Shown piece after piece: positions 3,055 through 55,186 of a DNA stretch of 64,000 bases. The stretch lies in assembly GCA_964549935.1 (NCBI GenBank), contig CAZJVT010000002.1, positions 191,066 through 255,065 of the forward strand, read 5' to 3'. Every line of letters begins with the position of its first letter. Positions within the stretch are counted from its first letter, which is position 1. The notes beneath the pieces were generated by a model, which saw nothing but the letters and a program-made list of their open reading frames with translations, was not told the origin of the DNA and searched no databases. The DNA is from an uncultured Candidatus Saccharibacteria bacterium (GTDB lineage: Bacteria > Patescibacteriota > Minisyncoccia > UBA6257 > 1-14-0-10-44-23). A program made the translations under genes and the position numbers.

Positions 3055-3537
3055 ATGAAACTTCGACCAGCCAAACTCTCGCTCGCGATTTTACTGCTAA
3101 GTAGTATTTTAGTGACGGCAACTCCAGCCATTGTCGCGGCGGCAGATTTAGATGTTAACCCGGCAACGACCAGCTTGGCTAACGGCATTATGCCTGCTTG
3201 CGACCCGGGTTACAGCGATTTAAAGGGTGGGACGATAGGGCCAAAGGGCCTCCCTGCCTGCGGCGTGACGCAAGCCCTTCAGCTTATCTATAACATCATA
3301 AAATACGTTACTTACATCATCATCCCTATCGCCGTATTGCTCATTGGTTACGCCGGGTTTACGATTATGACCTCCGCCGGAGAGGCTGAAAAGATAAGTC
3401 AGGCGAAACACATGATCCAGCTCCTGGCTATTGGCATCGCTATTATTCTTCTCTCGACACTTATCGTTCAGTACGTATTTAAAGCAGTTGGCGTGCAGTC
3501 GACTAATATAACTAATATCACGCCGGGTGCGAAATAA
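3055..3537 (+). CDS. TrbC/VirB2-like T4SS-type pilin, paralog 1
   Basis: signal peptide, two hydrophobic helices, conserved core YAGFTIMTSAGEAEKISQAKHMI; the mature N-terminal region carries a Cys pair. Confidence 0.6.
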   Translation: MKLRPAKLSLAILLLSSILVTATPAIVAAADLDVNPATTSLANGIMPACDPGYSDLKGGTIGPKGLPACGVTQALQLIYNIIKYVTYIIIPIAVLLIGYAGFTIMTSAGEAEKISQAKHMIQLLAIGIAIILLSTLIVQYVFKAVGVQSTNITNITPGAK

Positions 3538-3538
3538 T

Positions 3539-3886
3539 ATGAAATGGCTCACCTCGATTTTCTTGCTTCTTGGAACTAAGCTCGCTTTTGCCGCAGACAA
3601 AGTCACTCTTCCCAATCCCCTCTGCCCTGAAAATGATCCGACCTGTAAAACCTCTCTCCCGGATATCATTCACAGCGTTTTTCATTTTTTGGCAATCGAC
3701 ATTGGCCCGCTTGTGGTCATCATTTTCGTACTTGTTGGCGCCTACCAGATGATTTTTAGCGGCGGCGAAGCGGAAAAATTCACAAAAGGTAAAACTACTA
3801 TCGTTTACACCGTCGTCGGTTACGCCGTCCTCTTAATGGCCAATGGTATTGCCGCGATTATCCAAACAATCTTAACCGGTAAGTAA
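3539..3886 (+). CDS. TrbC/VirB2-like T4SS-type pilin, paralog 2
   Basis: start taken as the ATG at 3539 (the ORF-track start at 3527 is GTG); motif AYQMIFSGGEAEKFTKGKTTIVYTVVGYAVL. Confidence 0.6.
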   Translation: MKWLTSIFLLLGTKLAFAADKVTLPNPLCPENDPTCKTSLPDIIHSVFHFLAIDIGPLVVIIFVLVGAYQMIFSGGEAEKFTKGKTTIVYTVVGYAVLLMANGIAAIIQTILTGK

Positions 3887-3889
3887 TAC

Positions 3890-4234
3890 ATGCAAACTAT
3901 GAAAAGACTTGCAGCAAGACTGACTGTGCTCGCCTTGACCTCAGCCCCACTTCTTGCCTTCGCCCAAGACGTCGGCGATGACGGGTTGCCGAAAACGACG
4001 AAGGATGTTATGACCATACTCGGCCGAATCGGCGACTGGCTTTTTACCGGACTGCTCATTATAAGTGTTATAATGTTGATAGTAGCCGGATACAAGTATT
4101 TGTTCTCACAAGGAAGCGAAGAGCAGACGACCTCGGCAAAAAATACTATTGTTTATGCGGTTATTGCCCTAGCGGTGGCAATGCTAGCCGGTGGAATCCC
4201 GTATCTCGTCAAGTCAATCCTTCAAGTTAAATAA
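3890..4234 (+). CDS. TrbC/VirB2-like T4SS-type pilin, paralog 3
   Basis: signal peptide; motif GYKYLFSQGSEEQTTSAKNTIVYAVIALAVAML. Confidence 0.6.
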   Translation: MQTMKRLAARLTVLALTSAPLLAFAQDVGDDGLPKTTKDVMTILGRIGDWLFTGLLIISVIMLIVAGYKYLFSQGSEEQTTSAKNTIVYAVIALAVAMLAGGIPYLVKSILQVK

Positions 4235-4256
4235 AAATAAATAACATTAATATCGT

Positions 4257-4679
4257 ATGAAGAAATTATTGACAGCTCTCGCGCTCGCTGGAATTACGCT
4301 AAGTTTCGCCGCACCTCTCGTCCTTGCTCAACCGGCGGGATCAATTACCTGCCCTACGGGCATCTCTGTTTCGGCTGGCACGCCCTGCCCATTACCAGAC
4401 AAAATCCTTGGCGGCGACGTAACAAATCTTGGCGGTGGCAGCTTTGTTGCTTTACTTCAGACGATTACTAACTGGATGTTTACTTTCCTGCTAGTGTTCG
4501 CTGTAATCATCTTCATCTACGCAGCTTATAAGTATCTTTTCTCTGGAGGCAACGAAGAAGGCACAACTGCCGCAAAGAACTACCTCATTTATGGCGTTAT
4601 CGCTATCGCAGTTGCGATGATGGCAAAAGGTATAACCTTTATCGTCGCCGAACTCTTAGGAGCAACGACTACGAAATAG
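4257..4679 (+). CDS. TrbC/VirB2-like T4SS-type pilin, paralog 4
   Basis: signal peptide; CPTGISVSAGTPCP Cys pair; motif AYKYLFSGGNEEGTTAAKNYLIYGVIAIAVAMM. Confidence 0.6.
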   Translation: MKKLLTALALAGITLSFAAPLVLAQPAGSITCPTGISVSAGTPCPLPDKILGGDVTNLGGGSFVALLQTITNWMFTFLLVFAVIIFIYAAYKYLFSGGNEEGTTAAKNYLIYGVIAIAVAMMAKGITFIVAELLGATTTK

Positions 4680-8142: not shown

Positions 8143-8223
8143 GCTGGGGTGGCGAAATGGCAGACGCATCAGCCTTAGGAGCTGAAGCCGCGAGGCATGT
8201 GGGTTCAAGTCCCACCCCCAGCA
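8143..8223 (+). tRNA. tRNA-Leu (anticodon TAG)
   Basis: manual fold: acceptor GCTGGGG/CCCCAGC; anticodon stem TCAGC/GCTGA with loop CTTAGGA; 13-nt variable arm; T-arm GTGGG-TTCAAGT-CCCAC; discriminator A; CCA not encoded. Confidence 0.8.
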
Positions 8224-8371
8224 CAAAAACCAAAACACGGCCTTTAGGTCGTTCTTTGGTTTTTGTGCTTAGATGGACTTGAATCGTCGGACCGGAAATT
8301 TTCAGTATAAAATTTCGGGGAGAGGGTGCCCAGACCAACTGGGCGCGACGGCGCACAGTTGAGTCGAGGGC

Positions 8372-8390
8372 AAGTCCCACCCCCAGCACC
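8372..8390 (+). repeat. 19-bp direct repeat of the tRNA-Leu 3' end (att-like)
   Basis: caagtcccacccccagcac at 8372..8390 matches tRNA positions 8205..8223 exactly; the copy is followed by cca. Confidence 0.6.
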
Positions 8391-8464
8391 AACGAAAAAG
8401 TCCGGTCTTTGCTGGTTCTTTTTTGTCTTTGAGCTGACTAACTGTCGACTGACTAACCGACAAC

Positions 8465-9385
8465 TCATCTCCTCTGCCCGTGAAATTTCTTATGCACATC
8501 TCCTAATTGTTTGTTGGTCAGGTGCGTGTAAATTTGCGTCGTCGAGATATTGCTGTGGCCCAGCAGCTCCTGCACACTGCGCAGGTCGGCGCCATTTACG
8601 AGTAGGTCGGTGGCAAACAAGTGGCGCAGCTTGTGTGGCGTAACGTGCTCCGCGATGCCGGCCTTACGAGTGTAGTAATTAACCAGACGCTGCACAGCGC
8701 GCGGCGTGATCTTACCGATAACTTTTGGCGGTTTTTGCGACTTCTTGGGAACCTTACTTAAACTCACAAACATCCACTCGAGCGCGTCCCCGCGCTTATC
8801 CAAATACTTTTTAATCGTGGCCTTGCAGCTATCTGAAAAAAACACGACGCGCAGCTTCTCTCCCTTGCCGCGCACAGTAATCTCGCCGCGACTTAAGTCG
8901 AGATAACGGCTAAGCCCGCAGAGCTCAGAGACACGCAGCCCGGTTGAAAAAAGCGTCTCTAATACCGCTCGGTCGCGCAGCGCACGCAATCCCTCCCCTT
9001 CGGGTGCGCTCATCAGGCGCTCAAAGTCGCGATACTCCGGGATAGCAATCTGCCTTTGGGCAATCTTTGGTAACTCGATCTTATCGGCAGCTAAGACTTT
9101 ATAATCATGCTTGGCCAGATACTTTAAAAAGCTACGCAGCGCAATGACGTAGTAATTTTGAGTCACCTTTTTCATCGTTCCACCCCGGCCACTATCCATT
9201 GTCGACATTTTTACACGAAATGATTTCACGGCACGCTCGGTAATGTCCGACTCTGACTTAATCCCTGCGTCCTTTAAAAACACCTTGAGATAGTGCTCGT
9301 AGTTGCGCCGTGTTTTAGGCGACCGGCCCTTTTCGACGGTCAGATAGTCTAAGTAGTCTTGCAGGAGCTCCTCAATTTTCGCCAT
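8465..9385 (-). CDS. Tyrosine recombinase, XerC/XerD-family integrase
   Basis: 306 aa; C-terminal catalytic motifs LRHLFATDLLVNGADLRSVQELLGHSNISTTQIYTHL; N-terminal SAM-like domain; lies next to the tRNA-Leu direct repeat. Confidence 0.8.
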   Translation of the reverse strand: MAKIEELLQDYLDYLTVEKGRSPKTRRNYEHYLKVFLKDAGIKSESDITERAVKSFRVKMSTMDSGRGGTMKKVTQNYYVIALRSFLKYLAKHDYKVLAADKIELPKIAQRQIAIPEYRDFERLMSAPEGEGLRALRDRAVLETLFSTGLRVSELCGLSRYLDLSRGEITVRGKGEKLRVVFFSDSCKATIKKYLDKRGDALEWMFVSLSKVPKKSQKPPKVIGKITPRAVQRLVNYYTRKAGIAEHVTPHKLRHLFATDLLVNGADLRSVQELLGHSNISTTQIYTHLTNKQLGDVHKKFHGQRR

Positions 9386-36149: not shown

Positions 36150-36177
36150 AAAAATATATCATATATGATATATTTTT
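36150..36177. repeat. Perfect 28-bp AT-rich palindrome AAAAATATATCATATATGATATATTTTT (copy 1)
   Basis: about 50 bp upstream of tRNA-Ser and 165 bp upstream of the ABC exporter; near-identical copy at 53390..53418. Confidence 0.7.
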
Positions 36178-40007: not shown

Positions 40008-40101
40008 GACGAGAAATGAATTTCCAATTATCAATTTCCAATTTCTAATTAATTTTGGAATTGACCAATTGAACACTTAATTGAAAATTGTAAATTAAGA
40101 A

Positions 40102-40494
40102 TTGAAAATTAATGAACCTATGCAGTATCCTCCAAAGCCCTACAAGCGTAATGTCCGCGTCAACGAACTCATCCAGCAGGAGCTGGGTAAACTTATTTTG
40201 CGCGATATCGAGCTTACCGGCGGCATCATGACGATTACCGGCGTGGATGTCACCGAAAAGCTGGATTACGCTCGCGTCAAAGTCAGCGTCCTCCCCGCTT
40301 CACTCGAACGAAAGGCTCTTGGCTTGCTCCAAGACAACGTCGGCCGCCTGCAACACACCTTACTGCGCGTCATCAACATCAAGCCGATGCCGCACTTACA
40401 GTTTGAGATTGATAAAGGCGCCGAGGTAGCAGCAAAGATGGAAAAAGTATTCATGGAGGGAGAGGCCAGTGGTGAGATTGAAAAAGAAGCGTAA
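40102..40494 (+). CDS. rbfA: Ribosome-binding factor A
   Basis: RVNELIQQELGKLIL..VTEKLDYARVKVSVL..KPMPHLQFEID; start may be the internal Met at 40120. Confidence 0.8.
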   Translation: MKINEPMQYPPKPYKRNVRVNELIQQELGKLILRDIELTGGIMTITGVDVTEKLDYARVKVSVLPASLERKALGLLQDNVGRLQHTLLRVINIKPMPHLQFEIDKGAEVAAKMEKVFMEGEASGEIEKEA

Positions 40495-44832: not shown

Positions 44833-47073
44833 CTAGCTCCACTCTTCAACCATCAAAAGCTCGCTCTTGCCGGGCCAAGTGGGCAGCTTGCTCCAAATCT
44901 CTTCGGTGACGTAAGGCATAAACGGGTGCAGCATCTTTAAGCACTCCTCAAAGACCTTCGTGAGCGTGGTGGCGGCCATATCCCTGTCTCCTTCGTCGGC
45001 ACCGGCCAGACGGGTTTTGTACTCCTCGATAAGCTTGTCAGCCACGGTGTGCCAGGTGTAGTGGTAGGCCGCCTCGGAGGCCAGGTGGAGCTTATACTCG
45101 TCTAAATCGCGAGCGACCTCGGCCTTCACTTTTTCGAGCTCGTGCAGTACCTCCTGGTCGCGGGCGGTTACGCCGGCGTTTGGATCAACCGAGTCGGTGT
45201 ACTGCAGAATGAACTTACCCATATTCCAGAGCTTAGTCGTAAAGTTGCGGTAGCCGCGGATTTTGTCTTCAGAAATAACCGGGTCGGTGCCGGCGGCGTT
45301 ACCGGAGACAAGCGCCATACGCACCGCGTCGGTACCGTACTCAGCAGAAACGCCGAGCGGGTCGATGACGTTGCCTTTGGACTTACTCATCTTTTGGCGT
45401 TCTTTGTCGCGCACGAGTCCGTGCAAATAGACCGTCTTAAACGGCACGCGACCAGTGCGGTAAATGCCCAGCATCGTCATGCGTGCCACCCAGAAGAACA
45501 AAATGTCCCAGCCGGTCTCCATGACGTCGGTCGGGTAAAACGAATCAAAATCACGCGAGACGGTTCCCATGCTCGTACCCTGCACGTGCTTTTTGCCTTC
45601 GGCATTGGCCGAAGCCATCAGCGTCGCAAACGGCCACTGGCCAGAACTAAACCAGGTATCAAACACGTCGGTCTCCGGCTCCCAGCCAATACCGTCTGGC
45701 TTCTGCTCGCCGACGTGAATCTGCTCACCCTTGTACCAGACCGGAATGCGGATACCCCACACTATCTGACGGCTGACGTTCCAGTCGCGCAGGTTTTCCA
45801 TCCAGCGAAGAAACTCAGTTTTAAAGCGATCGCTCACAAAACTAACCTCCCCTTTCTCGACTGCTGCGACAGCTAAATCACGCAGCGACTTACCAAGACG
45901 ATTGCTCGGCTTCGTCATAGCCACAAACCACTGCGGACGAATCTGCGGTTCAATCGCGGTATTACATTTGTAACAAACCGGCACGGCGTGCTTGCGCTGC
46001 TCGACGTTAACAAGTAGCCCTTTTTTGTTAAGCTTTTCGACGATAAGCGCGCGTGCCTTGCTGATGTGCTGCCCGGTAAACTCGCCAGCGATTGGCAGTA
46101 ACTTGCCCTGCCAGTCGATAATCTGCTCCTTCGGCAGATTGTGCCGCTGCGCGATTTCAAAGTCGGCGGCACTGTGCCAGGGCGTAATCGTCATCGCGCC
46201 GGTACCGAGCTCCATATCCATTGCCGCGTCCTTAATGAGGGTTGCTCGAATCGGGCCATTAATCCATTCCAGTTCAAATTCCTGGCCGTCTTTGTACTGC
46301 GCGTAGCGCTCATCGTCCGGATGCACCACGACGTACTTATCGCCAAACTTAGTCTCTGGGCGCGCAGTCGCAATAGTAAAAGGACCGTACTTGAGATAAT
46401 AAAACGGATCGGTCACCTCCGGCTGGGCGATTTCGAGTTCAGAGAGCGAGGTTTGGTGGCGAGCGCACCAGTTGATGATGCGGCTGCCACGGTAAATAAG
46501 GCCGTCGTCATAGAGCATCTTAAACGTCTCGTATACCACGCCGCGGATATCGTCATCTAAAGTAAACTTTTCGCGTGACCAGTCACACGAGGCACCGAGT
46601 GCGCGAATTTGACCTTCCATGTGAGCCTTGTTGGCGATAGTAAAATCTTTGATCTCCCCGTAGAGCTGATCGCGCGGAATCTCCCAAAACTTCCTCCCCT
46701 CCTTCTCCAACTTCTTTGTATACACCACCTGCGTTTCGAACCCGGCGTGATCGGCACCCGGAAGCCAAAGCGTCTTAAAGCCGCGCATACGCTTGTAGCG
46801 GATCATAATGTCCTGCGTGGTCACAAACAGCGCGTGCCCGATGTGTAGTGAGCCGTTCGCATTTGGCGGCGGCATGATAATCGTGAAACGTGGAGCGTCT
46901 GACGTGTAACGTTCAGAGGGCAGATTGTCCGGATTAAAGTAACCCGAATCCTCCCACTTTTGGTAGATTTCCGGCTCACGGTCCTTATATTCAAAATGCT
47001 TCGGGAGTTCCATGGCAGTAGATAGTGATGAGGCAATTTTAGCGGAAAATCGTTGGTTTTTATATATTGACAA
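44833..47073 (-). CDS. valS: Valine--tRNA ligase (short form)
   Basis: class I HIGH region PPPNANGSLHIGHAL, KMSKS region KMSKSKGNVIDP, ValRS-type TWFSSGQWPF; 746 aa; the true start may be the internal Met at 47013. Confidence 0.8.
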   Translation of the reverse strand: MSIYKNQRFSAKIASSLSTAMELPKHFEYKDREPEIYQKWEDSGYFNPDNLPSERYTSDAPRFTIIMPPPNANGSLHIGHALFVTTQDIMIRYKRMRGFKTLWLPGADHAGFETQVVYTKKLEKEGRKFWEIPRDQLYGEIKDFTIANKAHMEGQIRALGASCDWSREKFTLDDDIRGVVYETFKMLYDDGLIYRGSRIINWCARHQTSLSELEIAQPEVTDPFYYLKYGPFTIATARPETKFGDKYVVVHPDDERYAQYKDGQEFELEWINGPIRATLIKDAAMDMELGTGAMTITPWHSAADFEIAQRHNLPKEQIIDWQGKLLPIAGEFTGQHISKARALIVEKLNKKGLLVNVEQRKHAVPVCYKCNTAIEPQIRPQWFVAMTKPSNRLGKSLRDLAVAAVEKGEVSFVSDRFKTEFLRWMENLRDWNVSRQIVWGIRIPVWYKGEQIHVGEQKPDGIGWEPETDVFDTWFSSGQWPFATLMASANAEGKKHVQGTSMGTVSRDFDSFYPTDVMETGWDILFFWVARMTMLGIYRTGRVPFKTVYLHGLVRDKERQKMSKSKGNVIDPLGVSAEYGTDAVRMALVSGNAAGTDPVISEDKIRGYRNFTTKLWNMGKFILQYTDSVDPNAGVTARDQEVLHELEKVKAEVARDLDEYKLHLASEAAYHYTWHTVADKLIEEYKTRLAGADEGDRDMAATTLTKVFEECLKMLHPFMPYVTEEIWSKLPTWPGKSELLMVEEWS

Positions 47074-47167
47074 AGATAGTTTTTTTAATTAAAATACTTT
47101 CACGCGTTTTCGACGCGCCACCAAACTTCTCGCGACAACGCGATCGAAGCAACGAAGGGAGCCCTGA

Positions 47168-47527
47168 ATGCGTAACGGAAAGAAAGTCGTCCTGCACGTC
47201 GAGGACAAACTCCTGTATCAGGATCTGCTCGCGGCAGATCTTCGACGGTTCGCCGAGGTGATCAGGGCGTCATCAATCATCGAGGCGGAGGCCAAGTTCG
47301 CGGCCAACCAGGGCGTGATCGACGTCATCGTGATGGACGCCTGCGTCCCAGGCGAGACGCCAAACACGCTGCCCCTCGTGGCGCTCATCCGGCAGACCTT
47401 CAAGGGGCCGATGATCGCCTCCTCCGGTTTCCCCGGGTTCAGGAAGGACCTGATGGCTGTCGGATGTGACTCTGAATCTCCCAAGGAGGAGGTCGGAGCG
47501 GCAGTCCTCAGCGCTCTCGGCCTGTGA
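47168..47527 (+). CDS. Stand-alone receiver (REC/CheY-like) domain protein, high-GC cassette D
   Basis: KKVVLHVEDKLLYQDLL ... VIDVIVMDACVPGETP ... LPLVALIRQTF; about 62% GC; AAGGGAG ribosome-binding site; GC-rich terminator hairpins abut the tsaD stop. Confidence 0.55.
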   Translation: MRNGKKVVLHVEDKLLYQDLLAADLRRFAEVIRASSIIEAEAKFAANQGVIDVIVMDACVPGETPNTLPLVALIRQTFKGPMIASSGFPGFRKDLMAVGCDSESPKEEVGAAVLSALGL

Positions 47528-47597
47528 TAGGCCGGAGCCACCCAGCAACATAACGACTGGAGCAAGCGACTGGAGTCGCAGCTCCGGTCGTTCGCTT

Positions 47598-48626
47598 TTA
47601 CAACGTCATCGTTGAATCTGCTACAAACTTATACTTCTTTTTGCGGAGCTTGCCCATATAGGCTGCGGCGGCGATCATCGCGGCGTTGTCGGTGTTGTAC
47701 TCATTTTCCGGCGCGGCAAAGTTAATCCCCCACTTCGTGCAGTCGGCGGCGAGCTGTTTGCGCAACTCTTTGTTTGCGGCGACGCCACCACAAACAAACA
47801 CGGTGCGGGCGCCAAACTCACGAGCGGCACGCATCGTTTTTTTCACGAGCACATCTAACACGGCCTGCTGGAAACTGGCGGCGATGTTTTCTTTCTTCGT
47901 ATTCTTATGATCGCGGAGGTAATACAAAACCGAGGTTTTGATACCAGAAAAACTGAACTCGTAGTTCTTGTCTTTGAGCATCGGACGCGGAAACTCAATC
48001 GCCTTTGCGTCACCCTTAACGGCTAATTTTGAAATCTCCGGCCCACCCGGGTATGGCAACTTGAGCAGTCTCGCAACCTTGTCAAAAGCCTCACCTGCGG
48101 CGTCATCGCGCGTCTCCCCCAAATTAGTCCACTTCGTATATGAATCCATTTTTACTAAAATTGTGTGCCCCCCGCTCACTACTAATCCAATTGCGGGGAA
48201 GTCCAACTGTCTACTGTCTACTGACTGCTGTCTACTGTCTTTAGCGTTTAGTAAAACGCTAAAGACATGCCCCTCCATGTGATTAGCGCCAAGCAGCGGC
48301 TTCTTAAGGGTCTTGCTAAGCTCCTGCGCGAAGGTAATGCCCGCCCAGAGTGCCGGCTCAAGACCTGGACCGACGGTGACGGCGATAGCGTCAATCTCTT
48401 TAGCGGTTTTTGAAAGCCTGAGCTCGCTCAAAAGCTTTGGCAGGTTGGCAATGTGTTCGCGCTTGGCGATATTGGGCACTACCCCGCCCCACTCACGGTG
48501 CAACTCGATTTGCGAGTTAACCAGATTTTTTAAAACTTTAAACTGCGGATTTTTTATCCCGCCGGAGCACTCGACTATCGAGAGCGCTGTTTCATCGCAA
48601 CTTGTTTCAATTGATAGGATTTTCAT
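47598..48626 (-). CDS. tsaD: tRNA N6-adenosine threonylcarbamoyltransferase TsaD (Kae1/Gcp)
   Basis: MKILSIETSCDETALSIVE.., HMEGH.., VVSGGHT..; contains an 11-aa in-frame insertion DSRQQSVDSRQ encoded by a TAG-rich repeat. Confidence 0.85.
   Translation of the reverse strand: MKILSIETSCDETALSIVECSGGIKNPQFKVLKNLVNSQIELHREWGGVVPNIAKREHIANLPKLLSELRLSKTAKEIDAIAVTVGPGLEPALWAGITFAQELSKTLKKPLLGANHMEGHVFSVLLNAKDSRQQSVDSRQLDFPAIGLVVSGGHTILVKMDSYTKWTNLGETRDDAAGEAFDKVARLLKLPYPGGPEISKLAVKGDAKAIEFPRPMLKDKNYEFSFSGIKTSVLYYLRDHKNTKKENIAASFQQAVLDVLVKKTMRAAREFGARTVFVCGGVAANKELRKQLAADCTKWGINFAAPENEYNTDNAAMIAAAAYMGKLRKKKYKFVADSTMTL
48207..48264. repeat. TAG-rich repeat (gacagtagacagcagtcagtagacagtagacag on the coding strand) plus adjacent perfect 11-bp-stem hairpin, both inside the tsaD coding region
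   Basis: ctgtctactgtctactgactgctgtctactgtc followed by ctttagcgttt-agta-aaacgctaaag; same motif family as 51366..51402 and 52251..52355. Confidence 0.65.
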
Positions 48627-48634
48627 ACTGAACC

Positions 48635-48662
48635 AAAAACCCGGCACAGGGCCGGGTTTTTG
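48635..48662 (-). terminator. Rho-independent terminator after rpsI
   Basis: minus strand aacccggccc-tgtg-ccgggtttttggtt. Confidence 0.6.
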
Positions 48663-48674
48663 TTAAGACATTCT

Positions 48675-49133
48675 TTAACGCTTGGCCCACTGCGGAGCAC
48701 GTCGTGCCTTCTTGAGTCCGTACTTCTTACGCTCAACGTGGCGCGGATCGCGGGTCATGTGACCATCACGGCGGAGCGCTTTGCGGAGAGTTTCATCGTG
48801 AGAAACGAGCGCGCGAGCGATACCGTTGCGGATAGCGTCGGCCTGGGCCATAACGCCACCACCGCGAACGTGAGCCGAGACACCAAAAGCGTCAGTCATC
48901 TCAACAGTCTTAAGCGGGCCCATGATGACAGCCTGCAAGCGCGGCATCGGGAAGTACTTAGCGATATCCTTGCCGTTGACGGTAACTCCCGAGCTCTTCG
49001 GGAAGATACGAACGCTGGCGGTAGCGGTCTTGCGACCACCAACACCCTGTTTGTAGCGACCCTCAAAAGCACCGTTCTTTGTTACGTGGGTCTTCTCTGC
49101 TTTCTCTACTGTTTTTGTTTGTTTTGTAACCAT
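48675..49133 (-). CDS. rpsI: 30S ribosomal protein S9
   Basis: ..GGGVMAQADAIRNGIARAL.. and C-terminal KKYGLKKARRAPQWAKR. Confidence 0.9.
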   Translation of the reverse strand: MVTKQTKTVEKAEKTHVTKNGAFEGRYKQGVGGRKTATASVRIFPKSSGVTVNGKDIAKYFPMPRLQAVIMGPLKTVEMTDAFGVSAHVRGGGVMAQADAIRNGIARALVSHDETLRKALRRDGHMTRDPRHVERKKYGLKKARRAPQWAKR

Positions 49134-49183
49134 ATTTTTTCGATCGTAAATCGTGTAACGTTAAACGTTTTAAGTTTCACGTT

Positions 49184-49549
49184 CTACGCCTCTATCTTAA
49201 GACGGTTCATACGAAGCTGACGGAGCTTGTTTTTCGGAAGCATGTTAAAGACTGCGTACTCAACAATGCGCTCCGGAGTGCTCTTACGCATATCGGCAAC
49301 GTTCTTGGCGCGGAGGTGACCCTGGTAGCTCGTGTGGTGGTAGTACTCTTTCTGGAGCTCCTTGTTACCCGAGAACTTAACCTTGGCGGCGTTTTTGACG
49401 ACGACACGGTTCGTGCCAGAAAGGCGCGGCTCGTAGGCAGCTGAGGTCTTGCCCTGCAAGATAGCGGCAATCTTCGTCGCGAGACGACCAACGATCTGGC
49501 CCTCTCCGTCGATAACGTATTCAGTTTGCTTCACTTTAGCTTCGGTCAT
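49184..49549 (-). CDS. rplM: 50S ribosomal protein L13
   Basis: YVIDGEGQIVGRLATKIA..LQGK.. L13 signature. Confidence 0.9.
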   Translation of the reverse strand: MTEAKVKQTEYVIDGEGQIVGRLATKIAAILQGKTSAAYEPRLSGTNRVVVKNAAKVKFSGNKELQKEYYHHTSYQGHLRAKNVADMRKSTPERIVEYAVFNMLPKNKLRQLRMNRLKIEA

Positions 49550-49550
49550 A

Positions 49551-49895
49551 TTACTTTACAAATTTAATGGTCGCCATCTTGGTTCCATCGCGCATACGCT
49601 GGACAGCGTGCTTGCTGATAGACAAGTAACCACCGGTACGGTCCTTATACTTCGGAGCAATTTCGTAAAAAAGCTTTTCTGCAGCCTGCTTCGGAAGCAC
49701 CGCAAGCAAAGCACGCAGCTTGGCAACCTGGCCGGTTTTAGCGTAGGTGATGTAGCGCTCAACGAGCGGACGGATGTCCTTGGCGCGAGCCTCGGTTGTA
49801 ACCATCTCGCCGTACATAATCAAGCTCTGAGCGAGCTGCTTACGGAAAGCGCGGCGGCGGCCGGTTGTACGGGCAAATTTACGTTTGGAAATCAT
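49551..49895 (-). CDS. rplQ: 50S ribosomal protein L17
   Basis: KRKFARTTGRRRAFRKQLAQSLIMYGEM..T..AKDIRPLVE. Confidence 0.9.
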   Translation of the reverse strand: MISKRKFARTTGRRRAFRKQLAQSLIMYGEMVTTEARAKDIRPLVERYITYAKTGQVAKLRALLAVLPKQAAEKLFYEIAPKYKDRTGGYLSISKHAVQRMRDGTKMATIKFVK

Positions 49896-49927
49896 ACAGA
49901 GTGAAATGAGAAATAACGGATAAGGGA

Positions 49928-50725
49928 TTAGGCTTTCTTTTTAGCAGCTTTCTTTTTCGGCTTCTTGTCCTCCTCCCCTTCAGCCTCCGGAGCGGCAACT
50001 TCAGCAGTTGAAGCACCACCGAGCTGCTCGAGAGCCTTTGAGAAGTGCTCAGAAAGAATCGCCAAACCGTTGCGCAAAGCAGTCGCCGGAGCAACGCCAC
50101 CGTCGGTTTCGATCATCAAACGAACACGGTTGAAGTCGGTCTTGTCGCCGACACGCATGTTCTCGTTGGTCATGGTTACCTTCGTAACCGGTGAGAACAA
50201 AGCATCGAGCTGGATAACACCAACCGGCACAGTACCACCCGCCTTCAAAGTCTCAACCGGAACGTAACCGAGACCCTTCTCGATAGTCAGCTCCATTTCG
50301 AGCTCAACACCCTTCTTGGTGATAGTGGCGATCTTCTGGTCCTTGTTGACGACGGTCACGCGACCGGTCTCCTCGATATCAGCGGCGGTAACCTCGCCCT
50401 CCCCTTTGGCCTTCAAGACCAAAGTCTCCGGCTCGGTGAAACCTGACTCACCCGGGAATTCAAAGCGGACCTTCTTGAGGTTCAAGCAGATTTCAACAAC
50501 GTCTTGCATCACGCCCTCGATAGTCGAGAACTCGTGACCAACGCCTTTGATCTTCACAGAGGTGATAGCGGCACCAGGAAGTGAAGAAAGCAAAACGCGG
50601 CGGAGTGCGTTACCAATCGTCAAACCATAGCCACGGTAAAGACCCTCGATGTCAAAGACACCAACCTTCTCGTCTTCTGAGATCGTAACAACCTTCAAAT
50701 TCTCCGCCAAAGAAATTTTTTCCAT
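49928..50725 (-). CDS. rpoA: DNA-directed RNA polymerase subunit alpha (N-terminal domain only, Lys-rich tail)
   Basis: alpha-NTD motifs GYGLTIGNALRRVLLSSLPGAAITSVKIKGV.HEFSTIEGV; 265 aa ending in EEDKKPKKKAAKKKA with no alpha-CTD. Confidence 0.85.
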   Translation of the reverse strand: MEKISLAENLKVVTISEDEKVGVFDIEGLYRGYGLTIGNALRRVLLSSLPGAAITSVKIKGVGHEFSTIEGVMQDVVEICLNLKKVRFEFPGESGFTEPETLVLKAKGEGEVTAADIEETGRVTVVNKDQKIATITKKGVELEMELTIEKGLGYVPVETLKAGGTVPVGVIQLDALFSPVTKVTMTNENMRVGDKTDFNRVRLMIETDGGVAPATALRNGLAILSEHFSKALEQLGGASTAEVAAPEAEGEEDKKPKKKAAKKKA

Positions 50726-50741
50726 GTGTTTGGTTTAAGGT

Positions 50742-51365
50742 TTACTTGACAATCTTAGAATAATAATCTACAACCAGCGAAATGTCAAAGCCGGCGTCGA
50801 CATCCTTCGGAAGCATCTTGATAGTCCCCTCTAAGGTCTGCGGGTTGATAGTAAGCCAAACTGGGGTCTGAGCTTTCGTAGCACGCTCGGCAACGTCTTT
50901 GAAAATAGCCATATCCTTTGACTGCGGGCGAATCGTGATGACGTCACCGGCGCGCAGACGGGCTGACGGAGCACTGACGCGCTTGCCGTTAACGAAAATG
51001 TGACCGTGACCAACTGCCTGACGAGCAACGGAACGGCTCGGAGCGATACCAAGGCGGTAGACAACGTTGTCCAAGCGGCGCTCGAGCAGGTTGATGAGCG
51101 TCATACCGATACCGGTCTGGCTCTTCTTAGCGTCTTTAAAAGCGTTGCGGAGCTGGGTTTCGCGAAGACCGTAGGTGTAACGAACCTTTTGCTTCTCGGC
51201 GAGCTGCTTGCTGAATTCGCTACCGGCACGGCGGCGTGAAGCACCATGCTGACCCGGCTTGCTCGGACGGCGAGTGATGGCGGACTTCCCTGTTACCGAA
51301 CGGTTCGGCTTTAAGAACAGTGGCATCCCGAGGCGGCGTTCTTTTCGTGCGCGTGTATCAAACAT
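50742..51365 (-). CDS. rpsD: 30S ribosomal protein S4
   Basis: ..RLDNVVYRLGIAPSRSVARQAVGHGHIFVNGKRV.. Confidence 0.9.
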   Translation of the reverse strand: MFDTRARKERRLGMPLFLKPNRSVTGKSAITRRPSKPGQHGASRRRAGSEFSKQLAEKQKVRYTYGLRETQLRNAFKDAKKSQTGIGMTLINLLERRLDNVVYRLGIAPSRSVARQAVGHGHIFVNGKRVSAPSARLRAGDVITIRPQSKDMAIFKDVAERATKAQTPVWLTINPQTLEGTIKMLPKDVDAGFDISLVVDYYSKIVK

Positions 51366-51402
51366 ACTGGTAGTAGATAGTAGTTAGTAGACAGTAGTCA
51401 GG
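51366..51402. repeat. TAG-rich repeat copy in the rpsK-rpsD spacer
   Basis: tagtagatagtagttagtagacagtagtcagg. Confidence 0.6.
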
Positions 51403-51855
51403 TTAGATACGGCGAACTTTCTTTGGTTTCGGACCGTTGTGCGGGATCGGCGTAACGTCGTGGATAGAAAGAACATCGAAACCTTGGTTGACGAATGAGC
51501 GGACGGACGAGTCGCGGCCACCACCGATGCCATTGAGGAAGATGCTGACCTTCTGCAAGCCGGCCTTGCGGAGCTTTTCAGTGAGTGCGGCAACAACTTT
51601 ACTGGCGGCAAACGGAGTCGCCTTCTTCGGACCGCGGAAACCGAGTGAACCGGCGGTGCTCCAAGCAACGAGGTTACCCTTTTCGTCGGTGACGGAGATG
51701 ATCGTGTTGTTGTAGCTGGCCTTAACGTAGACGTTTCCCTTTTCGAACTTCTTCTTAACGTCTTTTGCGGAGGCCGCAACGACAGCACCCTCGATGGCGC
51801 TCGCCTGGTTAATTGCCTCTGCTTCAGTTTGTGTACCGACTTTCTTTTTACCCAT
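51403..51855 (-). CDS. rpsK: 30S ribosomal protein S11
   Basis: ..NNTIISVTDEKGNLVAWSTAGSLGFRG.KK.TPFAA.. Confidence 0.9.
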   Translation of the reverse strand: MGKKKVGTQTEAEAINQASAIEGAVVAASAKDVKKKFEKGNVYVKASYNNTIISVTDEKGNLVAWSTAGSLGFRGPKKATPFAASKVVAALTEKLRKAGLQKVSIFLNGIGGGRDSSVRSFVNQGFDVLSIHDVTPIPHNGPKPKKVRRI

Positions 51856-51866
51856 AGTACTAATTT

Positions 51867-52250
51867 TTACTTGAGTTCAACCTTACGCTTACCAGAACCG
51901 GCGGTCTTACGAGTGTTACCACGGACGGTACGCGAGTTGGTCTTGGTGCGCTGACCACGAACCGGAAGGTGGCGGGCGTGACGACTACCGCGGTAGGCGC
52001 CCATGTCTTTAAGCAATGAAATGTTCTGCTTGATAACGGAACGGAGCTCTCCTTCGATCTTCCAGTTCTTTTCGATGTACTCCTTAACCTTGTTAACCTC
52101 GGTCTGGTCAAGATCCTTGGCCTTCTTCCCCATCGGGATACCGACGGCTTCGATGATTTCAATGGCGCGAGCCGGGCCTACGCCGTAAATGTAGCGAAGT
52201 GCGACTTCGATTTTCTTGTTGTCAGGAATTGTAATACCGGCGATACGCAT
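51867..52250 (-). CDS. rpsM: 30S ribosomal protein S13
   Basis: MRIAGITIPDNKKIEVALRYIYGVGPARAIEI.. Confidence 0.9.
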   Translation of the reverse strand: MRIAGITIPDNKKIEVALRYIYGVGPARAIEIIEAVGIPMGKKAKDLDQTEVNKVKEYIEKNWKIEGELRSVIKQNISLLKDMGAYRGSRHARHLPVRGQRTKTNSRTVRGNTRKTAGSGKRKVELK

Positions 52251-52355
52251 GTTGGGTAGTAGTTAGTAGAAAGTAGACAGTAGTTAGGGTTGGTTATGCT
52301 AGTTTTTAGTAGTCTTTCCTGCTATCTACTGACTACTATCTACTAGCTCCTGCTT
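52251..52355. repeat. Two inverted TAG-rich repeat copies forming a long imperfect hairpin in the rpmJ-rpsM spacer
   Basis: tagtagttagtagaaagtagacagtagttag ... ctatctactgactactatctactag. Confidence 0.6.
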
Positions 52356-52469
52356 CTAGCCTTGGCGCTGTTTGTGCTTAGGAATCGAGCAAATAACGAA
52401 AATTCGACCGCGACGGCGGACGGTTTTACACTTCTGACACACTTTTTTGACCGATGAACGGACCTTCAT
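52356..52469 (-). CDS. rpmJ: 50S ribosomal protein L36
   Basis: [37 protein letters not shown] (37 aa); the ORF-track N-terminal extension is rejected. Confidence 0.9.
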
Positions 52470-52473
52470 ATAA

Positions 52474-52692
52474 TTAGAGTCTTCGAGATATTCTGCCACG
52501 CGTTTTATCGTATGGCGTAAATTCAATGACAACCCGGTCCCCAAGGGTGATTTTGATGTGGTACATCTTCATCTTCCCCGAGAGATGGCCTAAGGCCAAT
52601 GTGTTATCCGGTAGTTTGACGCGAAACATGGCACCAGGGAGAGCTTCTTCTACAATTCCCTCCACTGCGCGTACTGCTTTAGTGTCTGCCAT
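52474..52692 (-). CDS. infA: Translation initiation factor IF-1
   Basis: ..[54 protein letters not shown]. Confidence 0.9.
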
Positions 52693-52835
52693 TGATTGAG
52701 AGAGTATACACGAGAGCTAAAAAAGTGTCAACAGGAATCGAATAAGGAATAATGAATTAGGAATTAGGTTACAAACAACAGAGGCGGCACGGGACGTGCC
52801 GTCCTGTTGCCGCCCCAAGATGCTGAGCCGAAGTC

Positions 52836-53336
52836 CTACAACTGGCGGATCCGAATCGCGACGCCGAAGCAGATCGCAAGTCCGAACATGAGCGATGCCA
52901 GCGACAGCACAGGCTTACGGCTTACGCGGTCGTGCACCCAGTCGTGCCAGACATAGTCGACCAGCCTGTACCCGATTCCTGCCTGCACGATGAGCGCCGA
53001 CACGAGCACGATGGCTTCTTCGAGGTTCGGCATACGCTTCTCGTGCCAGGCGGCCCAGAGGGCCACGATGAACATGATGTAGCCTACGGGCATCATGAGC
53101 ACCCGGAACGTAGCGAAGAACTGCTCTCTGTGCTCCGCGACCTGGTGCTGGGTGAGCAGCAAGATCTCGAATCCCAGCAGCACGAACAGCATCGAGACGT
53201 TCTGCGCAACGAGCGCGCAGGCGGCGGCCAGAGCCACCATCCCGATGAAGTGCATCCAGTTACGCAGAAACACGTGCAGCGCCGAGACGTGCTTCACGTC
53301 AACGATGATCGGCCTACCGTCAATTTCAACCTGCAT
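52836..53336 (-). CDS. Hypothetical 4-transmembrane-helix membrane protein (high-GC cassette E)
   Basis: 166 aa; about 61% GC; AAGGGAG ribosome-binding site; GC-rich hairpin downstream (52780..52820); host-type AT palindrome upstream. Confidence 0.5.
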   Translation of the reverse strand: MQVEIDGRPIIVDVKHVSALHVFLRNWMHFIGMVALAAACALVAQNVSMLFVLLGFEILLLTQHQVAEHREQFFATFRVLMMPVGYIMFIVALWAAWHEKRMPNLEEAIVLVSALIVQAGIGYRLVDYVWHDWVHDRVSRKPVLSLASLMFGLAICFGVAIRIRQL

Positions 53337-53389
53337 CTCCCTTGCCCTCCCCTTGAAAGCCAGACGCCGCCGGACCTCCCGACGAACGG

Positions 53390-53418
53390 AAAATAATATA
53401 TCACATATGATATATTTT
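53390..53418. repeat. AT-rich palindrome AAAATAATATATCACATATGATATATTTT (copy 2)
   Basis: near-identical to the 36150..36177 palindrome; about 55 bp upstream of the cassette E start. Confidence 0.7.
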
Positions 53419-53494
53419 GTCCAATCGTAAAAAGACCCTTTAGCAGTCGGGCCTCTCCCTACGTTACACGCTACACGTTTTACATTAAACGAAT

Positions 53495-55186
53495 CTACTG
53501 TACTACCACCGTAATCTTTTCGGGTGCACTTGGGACGGTGTGAACGTAAAATGGCCAGAGCTCAACCTTCCCGCCGGTAATACCCGGGATTGCAAATATA
53601 AGCGTATTGAGTTGATCGTCCGGCTTACCGGCGAGTTGCTGACTAACTGCTTCCGGCGTGACAATACGCGAGAGCGAAACATTGTATTTTGCAACTACGA
53701 GCATTTTACCGGAAGCCAAAGCAACTGCTTTTGGATTTAAGGCGCCGTAGGTAAGCGTCTCTGTGTCAACTTTAAAATCGGGACCAACCGCGGTCGTCAC
53801 CCTATCCTGTAACAAACTTTTTACATCCGCATCGCGGAAGGCAAGAATCGAGAGCTGTGCCTCCGTCACGACACCGACGGTCCCCGCCGCATCAGCAACC
53901 GACTCAATAGTTTGCTTTGTGACGGAAACTCGGCTGGCACCGGCAAGCACAGTAAAACCGGCTGGGACGCTCGATGAAACTTTAGTATTTAAAGAAGCTG
54001 TAATTGTGTCGGCGCTTTCTTTCTTGGCAGCTGCGACATCCTTATCGGTCGGCACAGAGGTCTCGCCACTGAACCCGCCACTCGCCCCCTCCTTAAGTTC
54101 ACCGTAAAAACCATCATATTTGGGAGTTTTGGCAAAACCGGGAATCGATAAGCGCGGCGTCGGCCCAACGTTACCGGCGACTCCCGGTTTATCGGCGGCG
54201 ACTGCCACCTCTATGCTCGAGGGGGTAATTTTGCCGTTCGTGATTTGCGCACCCGGGATTGTCAGTCCGGAAGTGATGCGAAAAATAACGCCACCCGGAG
54301 TCACGAAACGGGTGTTGGCAACGATTGTCTGCGGCTGTGAGCTGTAAGCATTATAGACAGTCATTGTCCCGGTTGCCTTTCGATTGACAAACTGCTTACC
54401 GCTAACCGGTACGCGCTTTGTTACAGAATCTTTAATGACAAAAACTTGCCCCGGCACCCGCGCGCCAATCGGATCAACTTTCGCGAGCGCCTTGTCGACG
54501 CTCACGTTCCCATCAAAATTCCATGTCTTCTTTTCGGTCACGACCGTAATAGTCGCCTTCGGTAAAACAGCGGCAGCGACATACCAGACAACGCCGATGC
54601 CAATGACCGCGGCAATGCTAACCCACAATAAAAGCCCGCGGTGTTTCTTCTTGGCAGGGCGCTGCGGCTCGCCACGACGAACACGTTCCGGTACCTCTCC
54701 CGGAAACACCGGCTCTGCTCCATCGCCATCCGGTACTTCTTCGGCCTCGCTCTCCTCATCCGGCTCAGGACGGGCAGCCTTCTTGGCGCGAGACGGACGG
54801 CGGGCTGCGGTCTCTTCATCGTCAACAACGGAAACTTTTACCGAACGCTTCCCTGCCGGTCGGCGCGTTTTAGCGACAGGCACGGCACCGTCATCCTGTG
54901 AAACAGCTGCCTCTAAAATACCGAGTCCTGCTTTAGCGGCTCGCTCCCGAATAGCTAGATCTGCAGTTTCTACGACAACTTCACGACGCAACAAACTGGC
55001 CTCTCGTTTAACAAGTTTGAAATTTGTAACCGTCTGCCCAAAAAGTGCTCCTGGTGCAATCGCAAAAACAACGCTGTCCCCTTCAGCATCAATAAGCTGC
55101 TCTACGACGGAGGCAACGTCATCACCGCGCTTTACGATAATTCGTTTTGGTTCTGCCATGGCTATGAAAGTGTCCCGCTGATCCAA
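53495..55186 (-). CDS. Hypothetical bitopic membrane protein with large extracytoplasmic domain
   Basis: 563 aa; N-terminal cytoplasmic region about 190 aa (acidic, Lys/Arg-rich), one transmembrane helix (LLLWVSIAAVIGIGVVWYVAAAV), beta-rich C-terminal region. Confidence 0.5.
   Translation of the reverse strand: MDQRDTFIAMAEPKRIIVKRGDDVASVVEQLIDAEGDSVVFAIAPGALFGQTVTNFKLVKREASLLRREVVVETADLAIRERAAKAGLGILEAAVSQDDGAVPVAKTRRPAGKRSVKVSVVDDEETAARRPSRAKKAARPEPDEESEAEEVPDGDGAEPVFPGEVPERVRRGEPQRPAKKKHRGLLLWVSIAAVIGIGVVWYVAAAVLPKATITVVTEKKTWNFDGNVSVDKALAKVDPIGARVPGQVFVIKDSVTKRVPVSGKQFVNRKATGTMTVYNAYSSQPQTIVANTRFVTPGGVIFRITSGLTIPGAQITNGKITPSSIEVAVAADKPGVAGNVGPTPRLSIPGFAKTPKYDGFYGELKEGASGGFSGETSVPTDKDVAAAKKESADTITASLNTKVSSSVPAGFTVLAGASRVSVTKQTIESVADAAGTVGVVTEAQLSILAFRDADVKSLLQDRVTTAVGPDFKVDTETLTYGALNPKAVALASGKMLVVAKYNVSLSRIVTPEAVSQQLAGKPDDQLNTLIFAIPGITGGKVELWPFYVHTVPSAPEKITVVVQ

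Follow-up and report, generated by a model that had tools for sequence, protein, structure and literature searches.

Tandem CTACTNN heptamer arrays in ribosomal protein operon spacers and in tsaD of a Candidatus Saccharibacteria genome

Organization of the locus and anatomy of the arrays

A 64-kb stretch of the contig CAZJVT010000002.1 from an uncultured Candidatus Saccharibacteria bacterium (Patescibacteria), called the window here, carries a ribosomal protein (r-protein) operon in which the rpsK/rpsD and rpmJ/rpsM spacers are filled with short tandem repeats. Going by the names of its TsaD homologues, the organism is a member of the Parcubacteria group of Patescibacteria. The interval under study, 51366-52355, extends from the first base of the rpsK/rpsD spacer to the last base of the rpmJ/rpsM spacer. 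The genes of the operon and the other features discussed below are collected in Table 1. Downstream of rpsD, rpoA, rplQ, rplM and rpsI are followed by a terminator-like hairpin and then by tsaD, all on the minus strand. The spacer between infA and rpmJ is only 4 nt long.

In the initial annotation, TAG-rich repeats of about 27 nt were described in the two spacers. Both spacers were indeed found to be filled with TAG-bearing repeats beyond chance expectation, and the 37-nt rpsK/rpsD gap is filled by one of them, but the repeat unit is not 27 nt long. The so-called 27-nt repeat is composed of four head-to-tail heptamers which read CTACTNN on the mRNA strand, as identified by Tandem Repeats Finder (TRF) at period 7 and confirmed in register by a unit scan. 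The units include CTACTGT, CTACTAA, CTACTAT, CTACTGA and similar heptamers. TRF returned period-7 rows of 3.4-5.0 copies at 48206-48240, 51371-51397, 52257-52287 and 52322-52345. The window possesses four such arrays, three of them intergenic, which were named arrays a to d. Array a includes tagtagatagtagttagtagacagtag at 51371-51397 inside the rpsK/rpsD spacer and ends 4 nt before the AUG of rpsD, while array b ends 5 nt before the AUG of rpsM. These two arrays show 88% identity over 34 nt, exceeding what periodicity alone would give. Array c is an inverted copy beginning about 10 nt past the rpmJ stop codon. Array d, which had been missed in the initial annotation, is situated inside tsaD. 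The repeats had also been described as pyrimidine-rich on the mRNA; only the arrays immediately 5' of rpsD and rpsM carry CUACU, while the copy just 3' of rpmJ reads UAGUAG. HutP-type proteins bind a NAG repeat in which 4-nt spacers stand between the UAG triplets of the transcript. A UAG-N4 pattern is present on the mRNA in arrays c and d only; in arrays a and b, the mRNA has the complementary strand, with CUA.

Table 1. Coordinates of the genes, spacers, repeat arrays and associated features in the window.
Feature	Position	Strand	Details
infA	52474-52692	-	
rpmJ	52356-52469	-	
rpsM	51867-52250	-	
rpsK	51403-51855	-	
rpsD	50742-51365	-	encodes S4
tsaD	47598-48626	-	
Context genes rpmJ, rpsM, rpsK, rpsD	50742-52469	-	supported by Pfam labels on syntenic loci
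rpsK/rpsD spacer	51366-51402		37 nt
rpmJ/rpsM spacer	52251-52355		105 nt
Array a	51370-51397	-	4 heptamers filling the rpsK/rpsD spacer; mRNA CUACUGU CUACUAA CUACUAU CUACUAC
Array b	52256-52287	-	4 heptamers in the rpmJ/rpsM spacer; mRNA CUACUGU CUACUUU CUACUAA CUACUAC
Array c	52319-52353	-	inverted copy; mRNA UAGUAGA UAGUAGU CAGUAGA UAGCAG; plus strand has the CTACT form
Array d	48204-48238	-	5 heptamers inside tsaD; in-frame reading DSRQQSVDSRQ
Predicted imperfect hairpin	52254-52350	-	26 pairs, loop of about 35 nt; takes up nearly the entire rpmJ/rpsM spacer; arms are arrays b and c
Perfect inverted repeat	48237-48266		13-nt arms, GTCTTTAGCGTTT AGTA AAACGCTAAAGAC; inside tsaD, adjoining array d; encodes VFSVLLNAKD
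Arrays (AATTTCC)x4.6 and (AATTGAA)x4.6	40019-40110	+	infB/rbfA gap; TRF
Heptamer array, CCTAATT type on the minus strand	52740-52768	-	4.1 copies; TRF
Promoter-like site TTGACA-N17-TATACT	52703-52731	-	upstream of infA; 11 of 12 consensus positions match, consensus match only

Chance low complexity was ruled out as the source of the arrays by shuffle statistics and by the excess of period 7. Allowing at most one mismatch, TAGTAGNNAGTAG showed nine matches in the window against 0.38 expected, a number reached in none of 100 shuffles, and 11 of the 23 TRF rows of the window have period 7. The family is clearly non-random and dispersed, which differs from the refuting outcome named in the initial annotation, namely repeats that are lacking in relatives, occur nowhere else and look like random low-complexity sequence. 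Across arrays a and d, the window is 100% identical to contigs assembled independently from two sequencing runs, so an assembly artefact was ruled out for these two arrays only.

Arrays c and b constitute the 5' and 3' arms, respectively, of the predicted rpmJ/rpsM hairpin. The hairpin had already been proposed from the two inverted copies, and these do pair in the predicted fold, but the stem is imperfect and its advantage over shuffled sequence is modest. Its minimum free energy is -28.5 to -29.8 kcal/mol, with z = -1.83 against dinucleotide shuffles, 9 of 200 of which fold equally well. The complementarity of array c was estimated at -32.9 kcal/mol with the distant array a and at -26.8 kcal/mol with the neighbouring array b. 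In the predicted fold, the rpsM leader is paired to within 3 nt of the AUG and the base of the stem places the rpmJ stop codon beside the rpsM start codon. Array a is predicted to be unstructured (z = 0.16 against shuffles). An intrinsic terminator was considered for the hairpin and rejected; the 3' arm is followed by CCCAACAUG with no U run, and the terminator scan lists nothing at 52254-52350.

Spacers and protein loops in related genomes

A comparative look at the spacers in relatives had been named beforehand as a check on the repeats. Four fully syntenic loci from close relatives (L202-L205) were retrieved through TsaD homologues of 80-83% identity. The rpsK/rpsD spacer is 5, 8, 12 and 5 nt long in L202-L205, respectively, compared to 37 nt in the window, and array a is absent at the orthologous spacer in all four. 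In the rpmJ/rpsM spacer, an orthologous CTACT hairpin with a shared loop motif, AAACUAGCAU, was found in L202 only, the spacer being 25, 11 and 4 nt in L203-L205. L203 possesses instead a hairpin of GTAGCTN heptamers in the infA/rpmJ spacer.

The comparison was extended to 80 more distant relatives with the same gene order (S11 identity of 52-69%, plus one partial match at 86%); tsaD was not found in these 80 metagenome loci. Their operon spacers are short, with medians of 13-28 nt. Among the 164 spacers of at least 45 nt, a self-match of at least 17 of 21 positions was reached at lag 7 in 26, at lag 8 in 8 and at lag 9 in 3, and in none of them at lags 4-6 and 10-12. Most of the spacers with this match at lag 7 fold into stems, both arms of which are heptamer arrays, and inverted heptamer pairs often fill operon spacers up to the start codon in the Patescibacteria loci. 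The heptamer unit varies by genome and includes CTAAACC, CTAACAG, CTAAATC, CTAACAC, CTAACCG, CTAAAAC, TTCTAAA, CTACTNN and AGCTNNT. In 808 kb from 85 Patescibacteria loci, TRF returned 111 rows of period 7 versus a single row in block-shuffled sequence; the corresponding numbers are 58 versus 4 for period 8 and 50 versus 7 for period 9. Of 100 period-7 arrays of this set, 90 are positioned outside long open reading frames (ORFs) and 10 inside. The spacer arrays are thus frequent, lineage-specific gains and not conserved operators.

These comparisons bear directly on the suggestion of the initial annotation that the repeats may form a structure for autoregulation, for example a binding site of S4 or L4. 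In Escherichia coli, the alpha operon begins with rpsM, where its S4 operator is also located. The arrays are likewise situated directly 5' of rpsM and of rpsD, the gene for S4, and a predicted stable stem sequesters the rpsM initiation region, as might be expected of a conserved operator similar to the S4-binding leader of E. coli. No r-protein leader was matched in Rfam, however, either at E <= 1 in 47000-54000, where only an unrelated weak match appeared, or at gathering score in the whole window, where only tRNAs were found. Array a is conserved in none and the hairpin in only one of the four close relatives, and the 80 more distant relatives mostly have spacers of the short median length given above. 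The repeat also occurs in tsaD, similar arrays flank unrelated genes, and the array in the rpsD leader is predicted to be unstructured. On the comparative data, the operator explanation is close to refuted and is considered highly improbable; the arrays are not a conserved r-protein autoregulatory operator. The other suggestion made for these repeats, an invading mini-repeat, agrees with the lineage-specific gains, the presence of both orientations and the recurrence of such arrays, built of different heptamers, in further spacers of related genomes.

Array d offers a view of the same repeats under coding constraint. Compared with Thermotoga TsaD, the window protein carries an insertion of 10 residues, SRQQSVDSRQ, which coincides exactly with the array and is placed in the loop that follows HMEGH. 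The length of this loop, and of three more, differs greatly among TsaD homologues of 71-85% identity. The codons of array d are GAC AGT AGA CAG CAG TCA GTA GAC AGT AGA CAG, and the sole unit departing from AGTAG is the one whose TAG would be in frame; it reads CAG. In L202, a near-identical 27-mer is found in a different TsaD loop (site A), and the two genomes share the 27-nt AGACAGCAGT(C/T)AGTAGACAGTAGACAG at TsaD sites that differ. L204 carries a complete ACTAAAA/GTTTAGA heptamer hairpin in the same TsaD loop as array d of the window. Stop triplets would fall in frame at three positions of this hairpin, two TAA and one TAG, which read TTA, TCA and TCA instead. Altogether, the in-frame stop positions are substituted in five of five cases (window, L202 site A and the L204 hairpin), while out-of-frame units keep the consensus. 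Purged in-frame stops next to intact out-of-frame units argue that the repeats arise in DNA and are then filtered by selection, which is not the behaviour of an RNA operator.

A perfect inverted repeat adjoins array d. Its NAKD codons are the exact reverse complement of the conserved upstream VFSV codons in the window tsaD, and the orthologous stretch is not palindromic in L202 and L203. Judged from the sequence, this palindrome points to folding back or template switching where the insertion took place.

Similar colonisation of protein loops was observed elsewhere. An alignment of TsaD homologues (P0001-P0066) distinguished four hypervariable insertion sites in this clade, after LPKLL, HMEGHxxSxLL, PRPML and YYLRD. 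The inserts reach about 40 residues and differ between proteins of about 80% identity, and some of them are visibly repeat-encoded, for example SYKLEAKSYKLP and NPSAGSGR. A second case of a repeatedly colonised loop is an SMC-like protein, which contains in-frame heptamer arrays of AAAATCA in L171 (10964-11002) and of CAAAACT in L191 (4471-4509) at the same site, after FRLMFGGG; these are two of the ten arrays counted inside long ORFs. In L077, an AT-rich Patescibacteria metagenome-assembled genome, CTACTNN arrays at 1000-1034 and 1613-1640 lie in transmembrane segments of a large membrane protein and encode LLTTNYCLLATLL and TTYYLLLTTF; these may be insertions or chance products of coding sequence rich in leucine, threonine and tyrosine.

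The hairpins in the spacers and in L204 tsaD raise the question of mobile elements resembling REPINs, the doublets of repetitive extragenic palindromic (REP) sequences, or miniature inverted-repeat transposable elements (MITEs), in which the inverted pairs would be moved by a transposase acting in trans from another part of the genome. In many relatives, and in other phyla too, spacers are filled by inverted doublets, and a whole hairpin has been inserted inside tsaD of L204. Arrays b and c form a stem of 26 pairs, as in a REPIN doublet, with comparable doublets in relatives, and copies within the genome are similar beyond periodicity, as noted for arrays a and b. GTAG, the conserved tetranucleotide of REP sequences, is part of the unit. 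The tandem-heptamer build is nevertheless unlike that of REPs and REPINs (described in PMC3116915), single arms stand alone as arrays a and d, and REPs are extragenic whereas array d and the L204 hairpin lie inside tsaD. No Pfam match to a Y1 transposase or REP-associated tyrosine transposase (RAYT) domain, and no RAYT/IS200-type transposase, was found in the 50 of 63 window ORFs (>=90 aa) that were scanned; the genes listed for L202-L205 include none. At the rpsK/rpsD insertion, no duplication of a target site was recognised. Mobilisation of this type is regarded as improbable.

Gene starts, orientation and origin of the arrays

To place the arrays among ordinary leaders, 377 confidently placed starts of infA, r-protein genes and rpoA from the window and L122-L205 were surveyed. 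A Shine-Dalgarno (SD) core was observed at 5% of the starts, equal to the expectation from shuffled leaders, and positions -20 to -1 contain 13% G and 41% A. Initiation at these highly expressed genes appears to proceed without SD pairing in this clade. As normal leaders are G-poor and have no SD sites, an array of CUACU units, itself G-poor, is in keeping with the usual kind of leader. In Patescibacteria spacers, the gap between array and start codon has a median of 4.5 nt.

Such positioning could also mean that the arrays are rows of 7-nt sites for an RNA-binding protein, for instance S1 or a cold-shock-domain protein, which would recruit or block ribosomes at SD-less genes and whose regulon would include rpsM and rpsD. 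Arrays a and b stop 4-5 nt short of the rpsD and rpsM starts, in agreement with the median across Patescibacteria spacers, and the genes concerned have no SD sites. The orientation is biased, the G-poor strand being the sense strand beside start codons, and TAG/CTA is enriched at the 7-nt period. An equivalent proposal has been made for the TAACTGA repeats that precede S4, L3 and S1 in Beggiatoaceae (PMC4679880). Yet the same spacers in close relatives have no arrays, and the heptamer sequence differs between related genomes, which argues against one conserved binding specificity. Copies exist in both orientations and inside the tsaD ORF, the orientation bias in Patescibacteria is weak (about 2:1) and not significant, and proximity to the start codon is expected for any insertion into a spacer of 5-15 nt. 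A motif search of the window for a cold-shock protein gene found none, 64 kb being too little for this to be informative. On balance, arrays serving as protein-binding sites on the RNA are considered unlikely.

We favour, with a probability of about 0.6, the reading that the arrays are lineage-specific tandem CTACTNN heptamers which arise and spread at the DNA level in this Patescibacteria genome. They are recent gains which fill otherwise minimal spacers, and they are found in both orientations and as inverted pairs. Equivalent arrays of other heptamers are present at other spacers of related genomes, and array d occupies a permissive TsaD loop. Replication slippage would lengthen the arrays, heptamers probably being a favoured slippage unit in many bacteria; arrays would be copied to new sites, possibly by recombination or template switching, and selection would filter where they persist. 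In the rpsD leader, a G-poor CUACU array directly 5' of the gene would be harmless because leaders here are G-poor and have no SD sites. In the rpmJ/rpsM spacer, the inverted pair is predicted to fold into a stem which keeps the rpmJ stop and the rpsM start close, so that translational coupling could persist. Translation of rpsM would then still be coupled to termination on rpmJ, as in relatives with spacers of 4-25 nt. The stem may incidentally serve as an intergenic stability or processing element; a gene for RNase Y is present within the window. A regulatory role of the arrays is a possibility only and unproven.

Several observations weigh against spread at the DNA level as a sufficient account. 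Slippage alone leaves the presence of the same heptamer family at several loci of one genome unexplained. In the ORFs and loci scanned, no transposase was seen, and no target-site duplication was recognised. The rpmJ/rpsM hairpin has been kept in two lineages with one apparently compensatory change from U-A to C-G. TAG or CTA is present in 56 of 100 period-7 units compared to 13% of random genomic 7-mers, a baseline that the A/T-rich composition of intergenic sequence would lift to an estimated 25% or so. At distances of up to 10 nt from starts in Patescibacteria, the sense strand is the CTA-bearing, G-poor one in about 18 cases and the TAG-bearing, G-rich one in about 9. Among 158 arrays from across phyla, gene starts follow the CTACT strand 31 times versus 10, and gene ends precede the AGTAG strand 41 times versus 12, both by crude ORF calls; as the forward count equals the random-position baseline, this polarity is treated as a hint only. 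Orientation bias and TAG/CTA enrichment together hint at selection or function at the RNA level beyond mere tolerance. The evidence on this genome covers 64 kb. A strong orientation rule for Patescibacteria spacers was also tried and rejected, the counts of about 18 and 9 amounting to a weak bias which is not significant.

A bolder version of RNA-level function would treat TAG/CTA-bearing arrays of 7-nt period as self-propagating mini-insertions of Patescibacteria and other SD-poor phyla, made or read by dedicated machinery and acting as operon punctuation. A three-frame stop arm after one gene would be combined with a G-poor landing pad before the next and with an occasional in-frame hairpin insertion, and a candidate for the machinery would be an RNA-binding protein with a 7-nt footprint. 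We regard this as a speculative proposal with little probability.

The bacterial excess of 7-nt tandem repeats has long been known, and its cause and function are not established. This clade represents a natural experiment that could tell mutational origin apart from function. It has many independent recent gains at exactly comparable sites (the same operon spacers and the same TsaD loop), its heptamers differ by lineage, and selection has left clear marks in it, namely purged in-frame stops and possibly a bias in orientation. The arrays are also relevant to how SD-less genes cope with inserted leaders or make use of them. In annotation, a stem built of repeats within an r-protein operon should not be taken as a conserved regulator.

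Other heptamer arrays were found in the window. Two of them occupy the infB/rbfA gap, which measures 113 nt in the window but 2 nt in L202 and L205; L204 has a gene with 23S_rRNA_IVP/bAvd domains between infB and rbfA. The two arrays look inverted, but their fold is no better than that of shuffles (z = -0.34), so a hairpin was rejected and no structure is claimed there. Another array, of the CCTAATT type (Table 1), sits between a terminator-like hairpin and the promoter-like site ahead of infA. From its consensus match, this promoter-like site is probably the start of an infA-rpmJ-rpsM-rpsK-rpsD-rpoA-rplQ transcription unit.

An array just upstream of a promoter-like site and another inside an ORF recall phase-variable contingency repeats, in which slippage switches the expression of the neighbouring gene, and 7-nt repeats do drive phase variation in Haemophilus. 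In the present arrays, the units are heterogeneous and only 4-5 copies are present, which disfavours slippage. The neighbours are essential housekeeping genes, and the sequences of arrays a and d are identical in the assemblies from two runs. Phase variation is considered highly improbable here.

Some further features of the window were recorded. A 20-nt perfect palindrome, ATATATCATATATGATATAT, is present at the intergenic positions 36154-36173 and 53396-53415 with zero and one mismatch, none being expected by chance. The copy at 53396-53415 overlaps a promoter-like TGGACA-N17-TATATT upstream of a gene for a 166-residue membrane protein, and the palindrome looks like a putative operator for a dimeric DNA-binding protein. 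A tRNA gene at 8143-8223 is followed, 165 nt on, by a 40-nt direct repeat of the tRNA 3' end (8371-8410, 78% identity). The next feature is a tyrosine recombinase gene with Phage_integrase domains (8465-9385). The tRNA-end repeat and the recombinase together look like a putative attachment-site remnant of an integrated element. At 3055-4679, four tandem paralogues code for small proteins that carry the pilin domain of type IV secretion systems (PF18895), and one of them also matches TrbC/VirB2.

Relation to known repeats and structures

To see how widely the unit is distributed, exact matches to (CTACTNN)x4 were sought in bacterial and archaeal genomes, one per species. At least 120 loci were recovered; with 20 specified bases and a uniform composition, an estimated one match or so would be expected. 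The matches listed span Cyanobacteria, Bacteroidota, Acidobacteriota, Planctomycetota, Chloroflexota, Patescibacteria and others, which indicates breadth but does not mark CTACT as special. Some of the matches listed are near-perfect microsatellites and others are inverted pairs 60-110 nt apart.

The E. coli alpha-operon S4 translational operator (Alpha_RBS in Rfam) is a conserved pseudoknot bound by S4. The rpmJ/rpsM hairpin is similar to it in being an RNA structure, here predicted, which overlaps the rpsM initiation region within or at the head of the same gene cluster. It differs in being a repeat-built stem which is absent from most relatives. With REPs and REPINs (PMC3116915), the inverted pairs share the character of short dispersed hairpin-forming doublets with GTAG, situated in intergenic spacers and often within operons. 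REPs have no tandem-heptamer substructure and are strictly extragenic, in contrast to the arrays, and no RAYT gene was seen here within the ORFs and loci scanned.

Heptameric simple sequence repeats are over-represented in many bacteria, with no established function (PMC4692102). The GGGAATC heptamer arrays of Xanthomonas, some of which occur as inverted pairs (Rehm 2015, PMC4692102), resemble the present ones as intergenic heptamers with some inverted pairs capable of stem-loop formation and with length and sequence varying between close relatives. They are G-rich and have been proposed to form G-quadruplexes, a potential that CTACTNN does not have. Tandem heptamers of Calothrix and the cyanobacterial short tandemly repeated repetitive (STRR) sequences are also on record, the latter through Mazel 1990 and Mrazek 2007 as they are cited in PMC4692102. 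Like the STRR sequences, the arrays are tandem heptamers over-represented in intergenic regions and grouped in lineage-specific families, and (CTACTNN)n also matched many cyanobacteria, for example as (CTACTCC)n, among the matches listed. STRR arrays are often long and near-perfect, whereas the arrays described here have 4-5 heterogeneous units set tightly against start or stop codons in a small compact genome.

The closest resemblance was found with the TAACTGA heptamers, direct repeats known from marine Beggiatoaceae and from some Cyanobacteria and Bacteroidetes (MacGregor 2015, PMC4679880). They are mostly positioned a few nucleotides upstream of SD-less starts, including those of S4, L3 and S1 in r-protein operons; their forward strand has stops in all three frames, reverse copies occur inside ORFs, and binding of S1, cold-shock protein (Csp) or CsrA is a proposal only (PMC4679880). 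The CTACTNN arrays likewise consist of tandem 7-nt units (in sets of 2-6 in Beggiatoaceae), are mostly intergenic, lie near SD-less starts and occur in r-protein operons, including upstream of S4, with occasional copies in ORFs. One strand of both carries stops every 7 nt and so in all three frames. CTACTGA and TAACTGA have five of seven positions in common in the same orientation relative to the downstream gene; when the arrays were tested as copies of the TAACTGA unit, no CTACTNN unit matched it at more than these five positions. In contrast to the TAACTGA type, the unit here is CTACTNN with variable last positions, the phylum is Patescibacteria, and the heptamer family switches between closely related genomes. 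Hairpin-forming inverted pairs are common here, compared to the single indirect repeat reported in the Beggiatoaceae genome, and copies within ORFs lie in internal loops with in-frame stops removed. The arrays thus belong with the tandem heptanucleotide arrays of the STRR and TAACTGA type, a class already known but unexplained, to which this clade adds a new phylum, a new unit, a high frequency of hairpin-forming inverted pairs and the repeated colonisation of one protein loop.

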